Source of the DNA: Candidatus Magasanikiibacteriota bacterium
GTDB lineage: Bacteria; Patescibacteriota; Patescibacteriia; Magasanikbacterales; UBA922
Length of the DNA stretch: 64,000 nucleotides
NCBI GenBank assembly: GCA_018651085.1
Contig: JABIEQ010000014.1
Location: 15,178-79,177 of the forward strand
Direction: 5' to 3'
Below the pieces are notes generated by a model. That model was not told where the DNA came from, made no database searches, and saw only the letters and a list, made by a program, of their open reading frames with translations. Numbering within the stretch: the stretch's first letter is position 1; the number at the start of each line of letters is the position of its first letter. This document shows, piece by piece, positions 4,570 through 50,476 of the stretch. A program made the translations under genes and the position numbers.

Positions 4570-4590
4570 CCACCAGCCCAAAGCTGGTGG
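4570..4590 (+). terminator. stem-loop after ligA (ccaccagc-ccaaa-gctggtgg)
   Basis: An 8-bp perfect GC-rich stem lies immediately after the ligA stop, followed by T-rich sequence. Confidence 0.5.
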
Positions 4591-4601
4591 TCTATTATAT
4601 A

Positions 4602-4751
4602 GGGGGCTCAGTGTGCTGAATTGGACCCCCATTTCCAATCAAGCCTTGGAGGACAGGGCAGAGCGATCGCGAGGATCACGTGCAATTCGGAGAGATCCAC
4701 CATAAGGAGGAGATACCGAGGGGCATTATTTAAGACCTGAGCACACTGAAC
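4602..4751 (+). ncRNA. G+C-rich structured element of unknown class between ligA and gatC
   Basis: No ORF. The 5' segment gctcagtgtgctgaa (4606-4620) is complementary to cctgagcacactgaac (4736-4751), which closes a ~130-nt domain containing GGGGG/CCCCC, a gcgatcgc palindrome and paired ggatc/gatcc segments. It is G+C-rich against an A+T-rich background. No SRP, 6S or tmRNA signature motifs were found. Confidence 0.4.
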
Positions 4752-4838
4752 GTATATGTACAATAGCAATGTAGAATAAGGTCTGTCAAGGAAATATCAC
4801 ACCTTGTAAGTAAGAAGAATGTCTAGTATACTTTTCAT

Positions 4839-18926: not shown

Positions 18927-19063
18927 AGATAAAGTTAATATATATAGAAGTATAACATGTTTAAGAAAGCTACTCTATAATACAGTTGACAAAACAATGT
19001 GAAAAAGATAGGTTTGAGATAAGAAACTACAGAAGCCAACACGCTTCGAACCAAGAGGAGGGA

Positions 19064-19306
19064 ATGAGAGTACGTGCAAATATGGGGCTTGAGGAGTGGA
19101 ACAACCTGAAAGTCGGGGATACGATCGAGGACAACATCCGGAATACCTGGGAGGTCATTAAAGAAAGTGAAAAGTCCTTAGGTCAGTCAAAGGTGTTCAC
19201 CTTCAAGACTTCTGAGGGGGATATGCAGGATCTCGTGATGGCTCGAGGTATCATCATTGCCTTTGAAAGCATTGACGCCTTCCTCGACCTGAACACCCTG
19301 CAGTAA
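19064..19306 (+). CDS. small G+C-rich hypothetical protein (81 aa)
   Basis: AGGAGG RBS 6 nt upstream of the ATG. Its composition is clearly more G+C-rich than the neighbouring genes. It is followed by a GC-rich hairpin. Confidence 0.45.
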   Translation: MRVRANMGLEEWNNLKVGDTIEDNIRNTWEVIKESEKSLGQSKVFTFKTSEGDMQDLVMARGIIIAFESIDAFLDLNTLQ

Positions 19307-19347
19307 CCCCGCCGCAGGTCGACCCGCCGAAAAGTCCCACCAAACCT

Positions 19348-19383
19348 ACTCGTCCGGGCCTTCGAAAAGAGGTCCGGACGAGT
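19348..19383 (+). terminator. GC-rich stem-loop (actcgtccgg...ccggacgagt)
   Basis: A 10-bp perfect stem with a 16-nt loop immediately after the GC-rich small ORF. Confidence 0.5.
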
Positions 19384-19402
19384 AAAGAAAAAAATAAAAA
19401 AT

Positions 19403-23902: not shown

Positions 23903-23999
23903 AATACGCTTAATGTAGTCAATATTTAGCAAACTAGACATATACCCCTTGACAAACATAGTTAAGTGTGCTATATTCTTATATCGATGAATGAAGCAG

Positions 24000-24690
24000 C
24001 TGTGTGATTACCTTTTGGTGCTTGTATAAAGAAGCCTCAAAAGGTAGTCGCACGTATGCGGTTGCCTCTCGGTGTGGGAGCTGGTCCTAATAAAACCCCA
24101 AAGAGGGTATCGACCTGACCTATCCTTCCCCGGGATTATGCTAATAGTTAAGGTGAGAGATGAATCTCTCTTTCCACAGTCTCGACTCCTCGCCAAGGAG
24201 TTCGTTGCTGAAAAAGGCTTTTTCTACATTGTGCTCGCGAGCACTCTAAGTAGGGATTGCACGTAATCCAGAATCCACTACTGGCTTCATGCCCGTTGAT
24301 CTTCCCGATCCTGGGAAAGAGAGTGGACTGGGACCTATCAGTTGTTTTTAGGTCAGTGCCTGGCACTGAACAACTGATTTGTACTCTGAAAAGGCGTCGA
24401 GGGAGAGCCGATCTCTCGAACCAATAGCCAGTGAGTATAGTCGAAGAGATAAGGACTTGGCAGTCCGATGCTCCGTTGGCCCGTGGCTCTTGTTCTTTGT
24501 TATCCTGGCGGTATTTGACCTACTGCTGGAAGGTACTATTACTGTGGAGCGTTTGCTCTCGAGCGTCGTGGGGTTTCAATACCCTCCGAAACTCTCGAGG
24601 TTGTAACGTGGTCAACGGCGGTGGGGGAAGCGCAAGCTTTCTCCGCCGTCTCCGCTCATCTCTTTTGTATATCTCAAAGTGAGGTACATA
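24000..24690. ncRNA. large G+C-rich non-coding region, candidate structured RNA of unknown class
   Basis: About 690 nt with stop codons in all six frames (longest ORFs under 85 aa, mutually overlapping). It is strongly G+C-rich compared with its surroundings and dense in palindromes and hairpins (e.g. 24331-24371, two CTCGAG copies bracketing a T-arm-like GGGGTTTCAATACCCTCC). It is bounded by a perfect palindromic terminator at 24701-24728. No RNase P, tmRNA, group I or group II signature motifs were found on either strand. Confidence 0.45.
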
Positions 24691-24700
24691 AAAGAAAGTA

Positions 24701-24728
24701 AAAAAACATGAATATATTCATGTTTTTT
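24701..24728. terminator. perfect palindromic bidirectional terminator (aaaaaacatgaatat/atattcatgtttttt)
   Basis: A 14-bp perfect inverted repeat flanked by an A-run and a T-run. It lies downstream of tRNA-Lys (minus) and of the GC-rich RNA region. Confidence 0.7.
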
Positions 24729-24792
24729 TGTTTTTAATATTATAATCATTTCAAAAGAAAAACACATCAAATATCTTGATGTGTTTTTTCAG

Positions 24793-29985: not shown

Positions 29986-30996
29986 ATGGAAGAACAAAAA
30001 AAGGAATCAAAAAAAACAGCTAAACAACCAAATCTAGGAACATTATTTTTACTTGGGATTGTTGGAGCGTTGCTTATAGCAATCATCATTGCTGTAGGTA
30101 TTGTTTCAACCCAAACAAAAAATCATTCAAGAAATGGGGCTGTCCTTTTAGGGGCAAGCATTTTTAATACACCTGCATTAAAAATAGACGGAAATAAAGT
30201 AACCTATACAGATTACATTAAAGATCTTGAAGCACTAGAGCTATTTTACAGCCAAAACCCAGAAGAGCTTGCTGCTCTTGGAATTACAGTAGATGATATC
30301 CCAGGACAAATACTTGTTCGACTTGCTGCAAATACTATTTTTGAACAAGAAGCAAAGGATTTAAACATCCAAATAGAAAATGCAGAAATTGATGTTGAAT
30401 TACAAAAACTTATTGAATCATTTCCAAGTGAAGACCCAACAACAAAAAGAGCTGGACTAGAAAAAGACATGCAAGACTTATACGGATGGGACTTAGAAAC
30501 CTTTAAAGAAAGAATCTTGTATTATCTTGTTCTTGAAAGAAAATTAGCCGAAGCAATTGAAAGCGGAGAGGTAATAGAAGGAGAAGGAATAGAAGAAAGA
30601 GAAGGAAAACATATTCTTTTTAGAATTCAAGAAGGTGACGACAAGGCAACAATTAAACAAACCGCACAAGAATCCTTAAATCGAATTCAAAGTGGAGAAG
30701 AATTAAGTCTTGTCGGAGAAGAGGTCAAAACAGAAGAAGGTACGGTTCTTTTTGAAGAGCTTGGATGGTTTCCAAGAGATGTTATGGTACCAGCTTTTGA
30801 AGAGGCTGCCTTTAACACAGAGCCAGGAACCGTACACAGTGAGTTAGTAGAAACAGAATTCGGATTCCATATTATACAAATTCTCAATAAAAATACCCGA
30901 GCAGACTTCTTAACATTCATGGATCAAGTATGGAAAAATGCTGATATTGATCTTAAAATAGAAATAAAAAATAATCCTTTTGAAGGATTACAATAA
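29986..30996 (+). CDS. membrane-anchored parvulin-type peptidyl-prolyl cis-trans isomerase (PrsA/SurA-like)
   Basis: N-terminal TM helix and a C-terminal PpiC domain (HILFRIQEGD...GWFPRDVMVPAFEEAAF...FGFHIIQI). Confidence 0.75.
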   Translation: MEEQKKESKKTAKQPNLGTLFLLGIVGALLIAIIIAVGIVSTQTKNHSRNGAVLLGASIFNTPALKIDGNKVTYTDYIKDLEALELFYSQNPEELAALGITVDDIPGQILVRLAANTIFEQEAKDLNIQIENAEIDVELQKLIESFPSEDPTTKRAGLEKDMQDLYGWDLETFKERILYYLVLERKLAEAIESGEVIEGEGIEEREGKHILFRIQEGDDKATIKQTAQESLNRIQSGEELSLVGEEVKTEEGTVLFEELGWFPRDVMVPAFEEAAFNTEPGTVHSELVETEFGFHIIQILNKNTRADFLTFMDQVWKNADIDLKIEIKNNPFEGLQ

Positions 30997-31010
30997 GATC
31001 GAGGTGTACA

Positions 31011-31038
31011 GTGATCCGCTCCTCCTAGGGCGGACCAC
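31011..31038. repeat. GC-rich hairpin with GGAGGA-containing loop, copy 1 (gtgatccgc-tcctcctagg-gcggaccac)
   Basis: Imperfect 9-bp stem in the 60-nt gap between convergent ppiC and the GC-rich gene 31057..31887. Its sequence is related to the hairpin at 32095-32120. Confidence 0.5.
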
Positions 31039-31056
31039 TGAACCTCACGTACAGTA

Positions 31057-31887
31057 TCAGATGATGCCGTAAACCAACTCTTCGTAGACAGAGGTCATGG
31101 CATGAGTGACCTCACCGACCTGATCCGCTCGCAGGCCAAAGAGCGGTGCTGCCGCAAAGATCCCCCAGAGTCGCAGGTAGAGATCGGTGTGGGCAATCGT
31201 CACTTCGTCTGCTTGAAGGCCAAAGAAGGCCTCAACGAAGATCTCGATCGACCCAAGACGAAGCGCCTTGACGTGTTCAACCGAAACCGTACGCGGATCT
31301 GAGTAATCGTAGAGTTTCTTCGCTACGATTGTTTGTTGATCTTGGGCAAAAAGCCATTCCCCGAACTCCTCGGGGTCCACAAGTTCCCCACTAGGAATCT
31401 TCCTAGTCTGCTGGAAGGAAGTTAACTTCATCTGTAGATTCCGAAAGGTCTCGAAGAGAAGTTCTTGCGGAGTGAAGTCAAAGAGTGTTGCTCGATCCAT
31501 CATGAGGAGTGCCGTTTCACCGGCAACCGCGTCGGCGTGATCCACATGGTACAGCCCGTCGACAGACCTGTTTTCAAGAAGGCAAGCAAGACGAGCAAGA
31601 TCAGTCTGATCGAGACCAAACTGGATGAGATCGACTCCGTTGAGCCCAAAGGACGTCTTCAACTCTCTCAGCTCCCTTCTTGTCAGATGCTCAGGAGCAA
31701 AGAGATTCTTGTAGTGCGCCGCCGCCGCCTCTGCCGCCGCCCTTTCTTCCTCGAGCGTAGAGACCTCTTTTTCCTTGTGGAAGTAGACTCCTACGGTCGT
31801 CGAAAGAAAAAACAGGGCCAGCAAAGAAGCCAGGACAGCGATGACGAGAGTGATGATGGTGATGGGGGCCATGGGGGGTGTCTCCAA
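31057..31887 (-). CDS. G+C-rich single-pass membrane protein, hypothetical (276 aa)
   Basis: Clean ORF with a GGAGA RBS and an N-terminal TM helix (ITIITLVIAVLASLLALFFL). Its composition is markedly more G+C-rich than the genome background. No known domain. Confidence 0.6.
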   Translation of the reverse strand: METPPMAPITIITLVIAVLASLLALFFLSTTVGVYFHKEKEVSTLEEERAAAEAAAAHYKNLFAPEHLTRRELRELKTSFGLNGVDLIQFGLDQTDLARLACLLENRSVDGLYHVDHADAVAGETALLMMDRATLFDFTPQELLFETFRNLQMKLTSFQQTRKIPSGELVDPEEFGEWLFAQDQQTIVAKKLYDYSDPRTVSVEHVKALRLGSIEIFVEAFFGLQADEVTIAHTDLYLRLWGIFAAAPLFGLRADQVGEVTHAMTSVYEELVYGII

Positions 31888-32054
31888 ATGTGAAGTTGGG
31901 CCATTGTACTGTACGAGAGATACTTAAATAGTACTTATTTAAGACATTTTGTCAAGGAAAAGCTAACAATATAAGAAAATTGTTGTAAAATATAAGTCTA
32001 GGATTTAATCCCCAAGATAAGTCAGTTTCTCATTTAATATGAGAACTTTTTTTA

Positions 32055-32081
32055 TAAAAAAAAACCCATAAGGGTTTGCGT
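32055..32081 (-). terminator. rho-independent terminator of the 32165..32953 gene (minus orientation: aaaccc-ttat-gggttt then a T-run)
   Basis: Hairpin followed by a 9-nt T-run when read on the minus strand. Confidence 0.6.
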
Positions 32082-32094
32082 AGTATCAAGGTAT

Positions 32095-32120
32095 GTGGTC
32101 CGTTCCTCCGGACGGACCAC
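32095..32120. repeat. GC-rich hairpin with GGAGGA-containing loop, copy 2 (gtggtccgt-tcctccgg-acggaccac)
   Basis: A perfect 9-bp stem. It is nested in a larger inverted repeat (atcaagg...ccttgat) and a gtgtc...gacac hairpin, and is related to copy 1 at 31011-31038. Confidence 0.5.
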
Positions 32121-32164
32121 GTGTCACACAGACACTGCCTTGATCTGATTGTTGCGCTAGAGCC

Positions 32165-32953
32165 CTACGATGAGGGAGTATCCTCGTCGAGGTCAATCAT
32201 GGGAAGTTCCTCCTCGGGGGCAAATTCCGTGTCGGCCATGGTGACACGGTAGACCACGCTGAGAAACAGCTGAACTTTCTCTTTCTCGAGAAGCTCAAGC
32301 GAGGACAACATAAGCCCCGAGAGGCCTCCTGCCCTGTATCGAGCCGCCGTCTTGAAGTAGCGTTCGAACTGTGAGGCCGTAAGGGGGGCGATCGGCGAAA
32401 GCCCGTACCATTGCCGAGCCAGAGCCTCTTCCCGCTTTGAGCGGTAGGCATCAAGTTCCTCAGGGGTGAAGCTCGTCGCCGTGTATCTGCCCGGCTTTCC
32501 AGTTCGCTCCTCCATGTTTCTGATCTTGGCCAGTTCCTCGGCGTCCTTGTCCGTAAGGTAGGAAGCCATCTCTTCCGAGAGGGGATACTTCCCTTTGAAC
32601 CTGCCTCGGTATTGACTCATGCAGACGTAGAGAAAGCCCAGGAGTTCGTCCCCTGAGAGCCCTTTCGAACCGGCGGTGTCCATCGCGAGAAGAACTGTCC
32701 CCAGGAGTCCTTCACCCTGCATCTTCTTTGAGACAGGGCCGCCATGAGACAATGTCTCGTTCGCTTGCTCCAGGCGCCGGATTTCCCCTCTCATCCAATC
32801 GGCGTCCTTTTCAAGGGACGCGTAAGAGGCCTCAAGAGGATCAATAGTAGCTCTTAGTTGTTCGAGCCCCGGTTTGTACCAGAGGTAGTACGCAACCACC
32901 GCTTGCAACGCACCGAAGCCGAGGACGACCAAGATGGCCATTGTAATGCTCAT
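32165..32953 (-). CDS. G+C-rich single-pass membrane protein with a coiled-coil, hypothetical (262 aa)
   Basis: N-terminal TM helix (MAILVVLGFGALQAVVAYYLWY) and a coiled-coil region. G+C-rich. No known domain. Confidence 0.6.
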   Translation of the reverse strand: MSITMAILVVLGFGALQAVVAYYLWYKPGLEQLRATIDPLEASYASLEKDADWMRGEIRRLEQANETLSHGGPVSKKMQGEGLLGTVLLAMDTAGSKGLSGDELLGFLYVCMSQYRGRFKGKYPLSEEMASYLTDKDAEELAKIRNMEERTGKPGRYTATSFTPEELDAYRSKREEALARQWYGLSPIAPLTASQFERYFKTAARYRAGGLSGLMLSSLELLEKEKVQLFLSVVYRVTMADTEFAPEEELPMIDLDEDTPSS

Positions 32954-33111
32954 GTCTGAACCTTCAGGCTGGGGGAATATGAACGATAATTCCCGGTGTT
33001 GTGTGACTTATAAATAATACACTTTATTTGACTTTTGTCAATAGGAAGTATACAAAAAAAATGTAAAAGAATATTCAGAAAAAAAAGAATTTATGATATA
33101 CTTAATCCATT

Positions 33112-33792
33112 ATGATTTCTCTCACTGGCGTAACCAAAGCATATACAAAACAAAGTATTGGACTAGATAATATCCACCTGCACATTGAAGCAGGTGAATT
33201 TGTGTCTATTGTAGGACAAAGTGGTAGTGGAAAAACAACCCTTGTAAAACTACTTATCGCAGAAGAAACACCGTCGTCTGGAAATATAGAAATAGGTGGA
33301 TGGGATATTACCAACATTAAAAGAAAAGAAATCCCTACACTACGACGTCAAATCGGTGTTATTTTTCAAGATTTCAAACTCCTTCCTAAAAAAACCGTAC
33401 GAGAAAATGTAGCCTTTGCCTTACAAGTAGCAGGGGAGTCACACAAACGTATCAAAGACATTGTCCCAAGAGTACTTCATATCGTAGGACTTGGTCACAA
33501 AATGGAAAGATATCCTAATCAGCTTTCAGGGGGAGAGCAACAACGCGTGGTCATTGCACGATCATTAGTTCATCGACCTAAAATTCTTGTAGCAGATGAG
33601 CCTACAGGAAATCTTGATACGTTAAATACAAAAGAAATTATAGAAATATTAAAAAAGATTAATCAATTTGGGACAACGGTTGTACTCGTTACACATAATA
33701 GAGAAGTAGTGAATCATCTTAAAAAACGAGTGATTGCTATTGATGAAGGGAAAATTTTGTCTGACGAAAAACATGGAAAATATCGCTTATAA
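33112..33792 (+). CDS. ftsE: cell division ATP-binding protein FtsE
   Basis: Walker A GQSGSGKTT, ABC signature LSGGEQQRV, Walker [13 protein letters not shown], 226 aa, followed by ftsX. Confidence 0.85.
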   Translation: MISLTGVTKAYTKQSIGLDNIHLHIEAGEFVSIVGQSGSGKTTLVKLLIAEETPSSGNIEIGGWDITNIKRKEIPTLRRQIGVIFQDFKLLPKKTVRENVAFALQVAGESHKRIKDIVPRVLHIVGLGHKMERYPNQLSGGEQQRVVIARSLVHRPKILVADEPTGNLDTLNTKEIIEILKKINQFGTTVVLVTHNREVVNHLKKRVIAIDEGKILSDEKHGKYRL

Positions 33793-34809: not shown

Positions 34810-35204
34810 TCGGCGGTAGCTCAGTGGTAGAGCAGTTGGCTGTAAAAATACTTGTATGGATGTATCCATATGAACGACTAGCAGCTCTTTGTAGGAATAC
34901 AAAGATGAATAACAAGGTGAATTGCTGGAAACCCTAACAGGAGGAGCTGAGGGTAATCAGCAGCCAAGTCTGTTTTTTCCGTATCGTTTAGTATACATTC
35001 GTGTACTGACATCGGTTACAGAAAGGTTCAGAGACTATCCCTTTTGGGAGTACTGCATAACAGTTGTTATGTGGGAAGCGCCTTGCACCCCACCGTCTTA
35101 GCATGACTAAGTATTACGAGGGTGATGATATAGTCCACACTTTAGTGAAAAACTAGAGATAATGTGTAACCAATTGGTCGCCAGTTCGAATCTGGCCCGC
35201 CGAG
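34810..35204 (+). tRNA. tRNA (most likely Asn-GUU, alternatively Thr-UGU) interrupted in the anticodon loop by a group I intron
   Basis: The 5' half TCGGCGG-TA-GCTCAGTGGTAGAGC-A-GTTGG-CTGT is followed by a ~323-nt insertion, then TAA-CCAAT-TGGTC-GCCAGTTCGAATCTGGC-CCGCCGA-G. The acceptor and T arms pair perfectly. The reconstituted loop CUGUUAA equals the canonical tRNA-Asn loop. Confidence 0.8.
34844..35166 (+). other. group I self-splicing intron (no ORF) within the tRNA anticodon loop
   Basis: Canonical R element GTTCAGAGACTA (35028-35039) and S element GATATAGTCC (35127-35136) forming P7. The 5' exon ends in U. The intron ends in G. A candidate internal guide sequence GCAGCU (about 34881-34886) pairs with the exon end GGCUGU to form P1. 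The exact splice boundaries are inferred. Confidence 0.75.
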
Positions 35205-35314
35205 CAACGATGTTAGAACCATTAAAATCCGTTATATTTAGCGGATTTTTTGGAAAGTGAAATAATGTAGTATATCTAGACAAATAGGCTTTTTTTTGTT
35301 AGGATCAAGTATCT

Positions 35315-38690: not shown

Positions 38691-38864
38691 ATAATGAAAA
38701 GAGTCGTTAATTTTTAAACTGTTATTTTTCCTTTTTATGTAAAAATAACCCTTAAATAATACTATACTTATTAAAATACTGTCAAGAAAGATTAGGGGTA
38801 TTTACTTTTTCAAAATATACGTTACACTACAAACATGTTAAATAATCATTTCTAATACACAAAT

Positions 38865-50041: not shown

Positions 50042-50051
50042 CAACAAACAA

Positions 50052-50078
50052 AAAGACATCAGATAAACTGATGTCTTT
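50052..50078 (+). terminator. rho-independent terminator (aaagacatcag-ataaa-ctgatgtcttt)
   Basis: An 11-bp perfect stem followed by T-rich sequence. Confidence 0.65.
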
Positions 50079-50139
50079 TAGTATGAAGACGATGCAGCGT
50101 GTCGACACACTCCCTTTCGGGGATGGAATCTCCATCGTC

Positions 50140-50397
50140 TTAGCCGATCTTTTGCACCGACTGGCGACCTCCGTCAATGAGCTCAAAGGTACGCAAAGAC
50201 TCAACCGCCGACTCCAACTTTGCGACAGCTTCGCCGGGGCTATCACCCCTGTAGCGAGTCTTCGCACCGAGCGCTTGCAGAATCGCGGGGTGAGTCTTCT
50301 TCCGGTCAAACCGGCAGACCCAATCCGTATCATCATGCCTTATCTTGAGACCAAAATCTCTTCTGTGCACTAGAACCTCCTTAGGTGGATCCACCAC
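50140..50397 (-). CDS. small G+C-rich hypothetical protein, weakly HicB/UPF0150-like
   Basis: The 85-aa ORF is the most protein-like of three overlapping ORFs in a G+C-rich patch. The segment GDSPGEAVAKLESAVESL resembles the GdT-eEAl-n-reA helix of HicB-type antitoxins, but the preceding PGC motif is absent. Confidence 0.3.
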   Translation of the reverse strand: MVDPPKEVLVHRRDFGLKIRHDDTDWVCRFDRKKTHPAILQALGAKTRYRGDSPGEAVAKLESAVESLRTFELIDGGRQSVQKIG

Positions 50398-50476
50398 TCC
50401 CTGTGATAGAAACCTTATACACTATAAAGAGAAAAATTGTCTTTGTCAATGCTGTTTGCTACAATTGAGCCACCAT

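Follow-up and report, generated by a model that had tools for sequence, protein, structure and literature searches.

A probable horizontally acquired islet of two moron-like single-gene units encoding predicted membrane proteins in a Candidatus Magasanikbacteria chromosome

The chromosome of a marine Candidatus Magasanikbacteria, an ultra-small member of the candidate phyla radiation (CPR; Patescibacteria), carries in the 64-kb stretch analysed here (contig JABIEQ010000014.1; hereafter the window, to which all positions refer unless stated otherwise) an islet of about 2 kb that is set between a ppiC/prsA-like gene and ftsEX and contains two G+C-rich genes, A and B, for predicted membrane proteins. 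These are probably horizontally acquired accessory genes that have been fixed in the population as two moron-like single-gene units. The islet is real and fairly ordinary as small horizontally acquired islets go, and thus represents a new case of a known class. A reading of positions 30997-32953 made from the sequence alone (the original prediction) had proposed horizontal acquisition, and the proposal is upheld by a composition that is foreign at all codon positions and by the lack of both genes in a syntenic relative, L008. The high-G+C donor, host or partner that it had further envisaged was not identified in homology searches.

Base composition and coding status

The DNA examined comprises the window and 9.6 kb upstream of it (L039), 74 kb in total, which become 84 kb with the addition of 10 kb past the right end (L080). 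The mean G+C content of the chromosome window is 0.37. When measured in 500-nt windows, the islet (31000-33005) has a G+C content of 0.49-0.55 (31001-33000) versus about 0.30-0.41 in nearly all others, and at a resolution of 40 nt it separates into two distinct G+C-rich blocks, at about 33005..32090 and 31925..31000, with a 107-bp spacer of 20-30% G+C between them. The G+C content of the genes themselves is 0.53-0.57 in A and B versus 0.32-0.36 in the adjacent genes. In particular, G+C at the first, second and third codon positions (GC1/GC2/GC3) is 0.62/0.37/0.61 in A and 0.60/0.43/0.67 in B, and the GC3 of the flanking genes is 0.19-0.26 versus 0.60-0.67 in the islet. In parallel, amino-acid use is shifted in the sense expected of a G+C-richer genome: both proteins are enriched in Ala and Leu, B also in Arg, and Lys, Ile and Asn are present at half the usual level or less, with the exception of Lys in B. 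Each of the three codon positions, and amino-acid use as well, therefore shows a foreign composition. The neighbours of the islet encode a Mur ligase, DivIC, PpiC, FtsEX and RlmN, all of them housekeeping, division or envelope functions. Window G+C and GC3 bear out the original description of two G+C-rich genes amid A+T-rich housekeeping DNA; both open reading frames (ORFs) of the minus-strand pair reported at 31057..31887 and 32165..32953 are likewise present, with the start of A moved as described below.

Both A and B are protein-coding, as their frames display the periodicity GC1 > GC2 < GC3. The other five frames of A and B have 3-14 stops each. At such a composition around 10 stops are expected per 270 codons by our own estimate, so that frames remaining open for 271 and 262 codons are not due to chance.

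Occurrence in the population and in a relative

At least 20 contigs encode protein B and at least 23 encode PpiC; they derive from metagenome-assembled genomes (MAGs) at NCBI, from ENA assemblies made with metaSPAdes and MEGAHIT, from Logan, and from the JGI data on Saanich Inlet. Looked up by exact sequence, proteins of the window are recorded under Ca. Magasanikbacteria from marine MAGs. The loci that were fetched are 100% identical to the window across the region, apart from one contig with two mismatches, and the junctions ftsE-B, B-A and A-ppiC are each spanned independently by short contigs. No presence/absence polymorphism was observed, the islet being found in all 23 contigs read with PpiC. 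The identity of positions 30900..33200 across projects and sites, as seen by comparison with L001-L007, suggests a very clonal and widely distributed population.

A first contig scan with PpiC yielded no relatives, and the species is apparently absent from the GTDB representatives. The nearest PpiC homologs are at most 39% identical, which indicates an isolated lineage. The best relative with long context is L008, a Magasanikbacteria MAG with the gene order ATPase-translin-Mur ligase-DivIC-PpiC-FtsE-FtsX...RlmN. In L008 the gap between ppiC and ftsE measures 348 bp and holds just tRNA-Gly(CCC) and tRNA-Thr(CGT) (L008 9041..9207), without A and B, so that the islet can be said to occupy a variable, tRNA-type position. 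No remnants of either tRNA gene were detected inside the islet. As a separate observation, these two tRNAs of L008 read G-ending codons, which are rare in an A+T-rich genome, and they are missing from the ppiC-ftsE interval here.

Anatomy of the two units

Judging from the predicted signals collected in Table 1, A and B are two separately promoted and terminated units and do not form an operon. In both units the promoter lies in A+T-rich DNA and the rise in G+C starts within about 10 nt past the -10 box, and motifs of the Shine-Dalgarno (SD) type precede the ATG by 7-8 nt (GAAGG in B, GGAGA in A). For gene A, the ATG at 31872, which has GGAGA 8 nt upstream and is picked by most gene callers, is a more likely start than the TTG at 31887.

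Table 1. Predicted features of units A and B and further G+C-rich units in 74 kb (L039, upstream contig)
Feature	Position	Strand	Basis or remark
Promoter of gene B: TTGACA, 16-nt spacer, TATTAT	33014..33041	-	11/12 consensus positions
Predicted 5' leader of B, G+C-rich, SD-like GAAGG at 32961..32965	32954..33007	-	Sequence reading; transcription start inferred from promoter geometry
Gene B, 262 aa	32165..32953	-	ORF, codon-position G+C
Two-tier 3' stem-loop of B, outer stem AUCAAGG/CCUUGAU, inner hairpin 32095..32120 = GTGGTCCGTCCGGAGGAACGGACCAC	32082..32146	-	Folding, z = -4.3
Intrinsic terminator of B, AAACCC/GGGTTT stem then 9-T run	32053..32077	-	Folding and consensus scan (32077..32062 in the latter)
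Promoter of gene A: TTGACA, 16-nt spacer, TACTAT	31928..31955	-	10/12 consensus positions
Predicted 5' leader of A, SD motif GGAGA at 31881..31885	31873..31921	-	Sequence reading; transcription start inferred
Gene A, 271 aa from ATG 31872 (276 aa from TTG 31887)	31057..31872	-	ORF, codon-position G+C
Two-tier 3' stem-loop of A, outer stem GAGGU/ACCUC, inner hairpin 31011..31038 = GTGGTCCGCCCTAGGAGGAGCGGATCAC	31000..31047	-	Folding, z = -5.7
Weak terminator-like hairpin of A, AATCCTT/AAGGATT + T-run	30965..30991	-	RNAfold
MTAP-like PNP_UDP_1 gene, TTGACT-17-TATACT promoter, AGGAGA SD	L039 1-370	-	G+C-rich unit
113-aa orphan	1-340 (= L039 9572..9913)	-	G+C-rich unit
80-aa orphan, TTGACAAAA -35 box, GAGGAGG SD, GC3 0.59	18986-19390	+	No Pfam match
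~80-aa orphan, TTGACA-17-TATAGT promoter, AAGGAGG SD	50050-50450	-	No Pfam match

The predicted promoter of A is equally close to that of B and to a native one at 38785, and the promoter style is thus host-like and not cassette-specific. At the other end of unit A, the terminator-like hairpin is made up of the final codons of ppiC, which is convergent with A (...NNPFEGLQ*; stop 30994..30996), and this makes the terminator signal of A native DNA; this hairpin, with only 2 G-C pairs, was missed by the consensus scan. The TTGACA -35 box and the rho-independent terminator that had been noted between the genes are both there, the latter with its T-run, and the proposal that acquired genes are expressed from local signals agrees with predicted promoters of host-like style and with a terminator made of ppiC codons. 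To this it can be added that gene B has a TTGACA-16-TATTAT promoter of its own and that the hairpins reported after the genes are the inner part of two-tier stem-loops. The designation of the pair as a two-gene cassette or paired module had to be given up, as the units are separate and the proteins not detectably related (shuffle z of about 1).

The shared 3' stem-loop

The similar hairpins that had been described after the two genes were recovered at 31011..31038 and 32095..32120 on the minus strand. With up to three mismatches, the fixed-spacing hairpin pattern is expected 0.11 times in the window, and in stability the two 3' structures far exceed shuffled sequence (Table 1). Upon comparison of A with B, the inner stem retains 12 pairs, with one compensatory change (C-G to U-A) and one change from G-C to G-U, a pair that forms in the sense-strand RNA only, while the outer stems differ in sequence and keep their pairing. 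The loop contains the SD-like sequence GGAGGA. Outside the hairpin and the frame of signals, no nucleotide similarity between the A and B units was found.

No further copies of the hairpin (motif GTGGTCCG...CGGAYCAC) occur in the 84 kb of this genome, and Rfam gave no match at gathering score in 30997-33111. Scans of public data with the motif returned 2 viral and 26 metagenome hits, all of them G+C-rich coding sequence or isolated chance matches; most represent one conserved gene encoding ...VVRTKEEADHSLPY..., and a stretch coding for VVRTKEEADH is among them. Hits of this kind indicate that the hairpin is not a widespread element. Its place between stop codon and terminator, the changes that preserve pairing and the G-U pair possible only in the sense strand point to a role in the mRNA, where the stem-loop would most likely act as a structure that protects or processes the 3' end; a role as a DNA recombination site is the weaker alternative. 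The shared stem-loop constitutes a small and testable RNA element.

The encoded proteins

A and B have exactly one hydrophobic segment each, located at the N-terminus (19-residue Kyte-Doolittle mean 2.3-2.9; cut-off 1.6), in line with the single N-terminal transmembrane helix originally assigned to both. No positive residue is present ahead of this segment, and Lys/Arg are found after it; by the positive-inside rule, this suggests an N-out/C-in topology, by which the bulk of both proteins may face the cytoplasm. Beyond the anchor, a long helix followed by an all-helical, net-acidic domain is predicted in both proteins, with an acidic tail in B. A Foldseek search of the PDB with the model of A gave a best E of 0.88 and a template-modelling (TM) score < 0.25, which is meaningless.

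The search for relatives covered several kinds of resources. Pfam, NCBIfam, PHROGs, PADLOC and the PDB sequences gave nothing above noise for either protein, and the same was true for INPHARED phages, IMG/VR and PLSDB plasmids. A word-indexed search of 5.8 billion proteins retrieved same-species copies alone for A and B, and an exhaustive HMMER scan for A of 1.84 billion representatives of about 15 billion proteins retrieved only a 99%-identical same-species copy. The earlier statement that no motif was recognised in either protein is consistent with these null results in the family libraries, while the suggestion of a defence module finds no backing, as no PADLOC-DB family was matched at E <= 1. 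Two more specific candidates were rejected. Paralogy of A and B is not apparent by BLASTP (E = 0.13) or by Smith-Waterman comparison with 500 shuffles (z = 1.1 with the full-length proteins, z = 0.5 with their soluble parts). An Rz-like spanin had been considered on account of weak PHROG matches (E 0.016-0.14), which involve only the N-terminus with its transmembrane segment plus coiled coil, and no lysis genes are present nearby. All in all, A and B enlarge the 'dark matter' among CPR membrane proteins, those that have no relatives. As predicted membrane-anchored proteins they could act at the envelope, a key interface for an episymbiont.

Taken together, a plausible course of events may be outlined for the two units. 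The host RNA polymerase would transcribe each gene separately, and translation would be led by the SD motif, unlike that of native genes. The 3' stem-loop would protect or process the 3' end of the mRNA ahead of the terminator, and the N-terminal helix would tether each product to the cytoplasmic membrane. There, A and B might serve as dispensable envelope-associated accessory factors, of the kind that morons often encode.

Other G+C-rich units and structured RNAs in the same chromosome

At least four more G+C-rich single-gene units built like A and B are present in the 74 kb (Table 1), and none was found in the 10 kb beyond the right window end; the presence of the four others indicates that such units are distributed genome-wide and that the islet is no special locus. 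Their GC3 is 0.57-0.60 where the frame is secure. The unit at 18986-19390 has the same -35 box as A and B (TTGACAAAA) and ends with a G+C-rich 3' hairpin and then an A/T-rich tail, and the unit at 50050-50450 has a long 3' hairpin and a terminator in common with the upstream gene. For the MTAP-like gene, the best matches in GTDB come from diverse non-CPR bacteria at 37-49% identity, with no donor that could be named.

These units also differ from native genes in how translation appears to begin. A GGAG-type SD motif precedes five of the six G+C-rich units (A and B included) versus 4 of 51 native gene starts, and since native starts rarely have such a motif, the SD-bearing leaders are foreign in style too. 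Over the whole window, the regions upstream of the 51 native starts are A/T-rich, and the predicted ftsE promoter ends about 9 nt ahead of the ATG, which suggests leaderless or near-leaderless initiation. With regard to transcription, seven of the nine promoters that have a perfect TTGACA -35 box and match at least 10/12 consensus positions precede G+C-rich stretches, non-coding RNA and tRNA genes included.

Three RNA loci deserve mention in their own right. A G+C-rich stretch of about 750 nt without a long ORF, at 23949..24735 (+), comes with a strong terminator and a promoter of the form TTGACA-17-TATATT; it folds much better than shuffled controls do (z = -8.0), matches no Rfam family even at E <= 1, and may be an unclassified large structured RNA. 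At 34812..35206 (+), just after tRNA-Gln, a tRNA-like gene has its anticodon loop split by a group I intron (34870..35158; Rfam RF00028, 68 bits), and the split tRNA was not called by ARAGORN. Finally, a G+C-rich stretch of about 170 nt at 4570..4789 (-) has the look of a 6S-type RNA, as it lies behind a TTGACA-18-TATTGT promoter and combines a terminator with a long closing stem (ttcagtgtgctcagg...ttcagcacactgagc); it stays below the Rfam gathering score.

Origin of the islet and alternative explanations

Several points weigh against acquisition as two moron-like units. No donor or distant relative of A and B was found in very large databases, which is odd for an unameliorated and thus supposedly recent transfer. 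Owing to the spacer of 20-30% G+C, a single contiguous transfer from a donor of about 55% G+C fails to explain the layout. The 'empty site' comes from a distant relative (PpiC 39% identical in L008), and A and B may have been lost there. The sampled populations offer no sequence variation from which selection on the two ORFs could be judged, and the single-sequence AlphaFold2 models of A and B are unreliable (predicted local distance difference test, pLDDT, of 46 and 40). Moreover, we infer the membrane topology of the proteins, the expression of the genes and the part that the hairpin plays in RNA.

Among the competing views, the first sees in the at least six G+C-rich units of the 74 kb the outcome of systematic capture from a single partner or host, as yet unsampled, with a G+C content of about 55%, either bounded by transcripts, and hence RNA-mediated, or guided by hairpins, in which case the A/B stem-loop would be its footprint. 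This novel route is unlikely, and it is kept alive by the lack of relatives, by the A+T-rich spacer and by the close match between the foreign sequence and the predicted transcript bounds, as the foreign sequence starts at about the transcription start and ends at the 3' stem-loop. A literature search on G+C-rich islets in Magasanikbacteria found nothing specific.

It is also improbable that A and B are native, lineage-specific genes whose transcribed regions are held G+C-rich by selection, which could act, for instance, on expression strength or on how stable or structured the mRNA is. Such selection would be compatible with the failure to find a donor, with G+C-rich blocks whose limits are the 3' stem-loop on one side and, to within about 10 nt, the predicted transcription start on the other, with the preference of strong TTGACA promoters for G+C-rich stretches (7/9, non-coding RNA and tRNA genes included), with the G+C-richness of the structured RNAs of this genome, and with a locus that is fixed and invariant. 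However, codon positions 1 and 2 are also raised in G+C and amino-acid use is shifted, which argues for a long residence in a G+C-richer genome rather than for selection on the mRNA. Furthermore, both genes have SD motifs that native genes lack and are absent from L008, and a native gene with a strong promoter, that of L27, reaches a GC3 of only 0.33.

A further alternative concerns function, and we assign it a similarly low probability: A and B might be membrane-tethered cytoplasmic coiled-coil proteins that act on cell division as EzrA or ZipA do, and not surface or exclusion factors. The charge distribution around the hydrophobic helix (N-out/C-in), the long helix past the anchor and the position among division and envelope genes, between divIC-ppiC and ftsEX, would suit such a role, but neither protein resembles a division protein in sequence or in any credible fold, transcription of each gene is separate and runs against that of the neighbours, and both genes are absent from L008, where the neighbours are the same.

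The chances are slimmer that the two palindromes are recombination sites, be they core sites of tyrosine-recombinase or Xer type, integron attC-like sites or subterminal hairpins of the IS200/IS605 type, at which each gene was inserted by a cassette system. Each unit has its site at the same end and in the same, direct orientation, the arms form inverted repeats of 10-11 bp around a centre of 4-8 bp, and the homology of A and B is limited to the 'frame' and spares the ORFs. In particular, an Xer/dif-type geometry can be drawn with arms of 10/11-6-10/11; the centres differ (TAGGAG versus CGGAGG), and the 84 kb showed no recombinase. An integron cassette was rejected for lack of attC R''/L''/L'/R' boxes (RYYYAAC...GTTRRRY), of intI and attI, and of any integrase gene in the 10 kb to either side. 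These 10-kb flanks have no other recombinase or transposase gene, the motif is confined to its two copies in the 84 kb and has only chance or coding matches in public scans, and the islet has no tRNA remnant. In addition, the changes between the copies keep pairing, including the G-U that is specific to the sense RNA.

Very improbable is the idea that the G+C-rich blocks are structured non-coding RNAs with incidental ORFs: a G+C-rich, ORF-free structured RNA does lie nearby (23984-24735, z = -8) and stops are fewer in G+C-rich DNA, but frames of 271 and 262 codons where about 10 stops are expected, a GC1 > GC2 < GC3 pattern in those same frames, SD motifs at the right distance from each start and an N-terminal hydrophobic helix in each product speak against it. 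An assembly chimera, by which DNA of a G+C-richer organism would have been wrongly joined into the CPR contig, can practically be discarded, since it has only the sharp composition steps in its favour and is contradicted by more than 20 independent contigs of several assemblers and projects in which the outer junctions and the internal spacer recur with 100% identity, so that the mis-assembly named originally as a refuting outcome is excluded, as well as by a terminator hairpin of A built from ppiC codons and by host-like promoters.

Acquisition of A and B as two moron-like units hence remains the preferred explanation. If it is right, the islet offers a clean example of how an ultra-small symbiont, whose streamlined, A+T-rich genome is largely devoid of SD motifs, takes up foreign genes, wires them to promoters and terminators of host type and fixes them.

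Comparison with known systems

Some features of the islet recall integron cassettes, namely unrelated orphan ORFs in tandem, each followed by a related imperfect palindrome. A and B differ in having their own promoter and terminator and A+T-rich spacers between the units.

With regard to the stem-loop, the REP (repetitive extragenic palindromic) type of 3' stem-loop in E. coli is known to stabilise upstream mRNA. The A/B structures have in common with it a G+C-rich imperfect palindrome, a position from stop to terminator and a structure kept between copies, and they differ by the number of copies (two in 84 kb), by the GGAGGA loop and by the lack of both a GTAG head and a gene for a RAYT (REP-associated tyrosine transposase). 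A REP/RAYT system was accordingly rejected, given the two copies in 84 kb and no related copies in public scans.

Islands and singly transferred genes are common in Patescibacteria, often with no assigned function and with a donor that has not been captured (PMC12455944). A and B conform to this description as small islands or single transferred genes in a streamlined CPR genome; they stand apart by the extreme gap in GC3 (0.6-0.67 versus about 0.2) and by SD motifs that are foreign to the initiation style of the host. As A and B are without any relative, no donor-recipient pair can be named.

The closest parallel is provided by phage morons. According to a paper that summarises earlier work on lambdoid phages, a moron is a single ORF of deviant composition between a sigma-70 promoter and a factor-independent terminator; it sits between genes that are adjacent in relatives, its acquisition mechanism is unknown, and its product is often a small membrane accessory protein (PMC4378225). 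A and B share with morons (PMC4378225) the single ORF, a predicted promoter of sigma-70 type (11/12 consensus positions for B and 10/12 for A), the terminator, which is weak in A, the insertion between genes that are neighbours in L008, and the deviant G+C content. They differ in that they lie in a housekeeping stretch of a CPR chromosome and not in a phage or prophage, the islet having no similarity to phages or to IMG/VR entries in our searches, and in that two units stand in tandem and share a specific 3' stem-loop, which is not a described feature of morons. Since the phage context is missing, it is appropriate to say that each unit works like a moron, not that it is one. Collectively, the main value of the islet lies in its being a well-bounded, moron-like acquisition outside phages and a pointer to the other G+C-rich units and the structured RNA of this genome.

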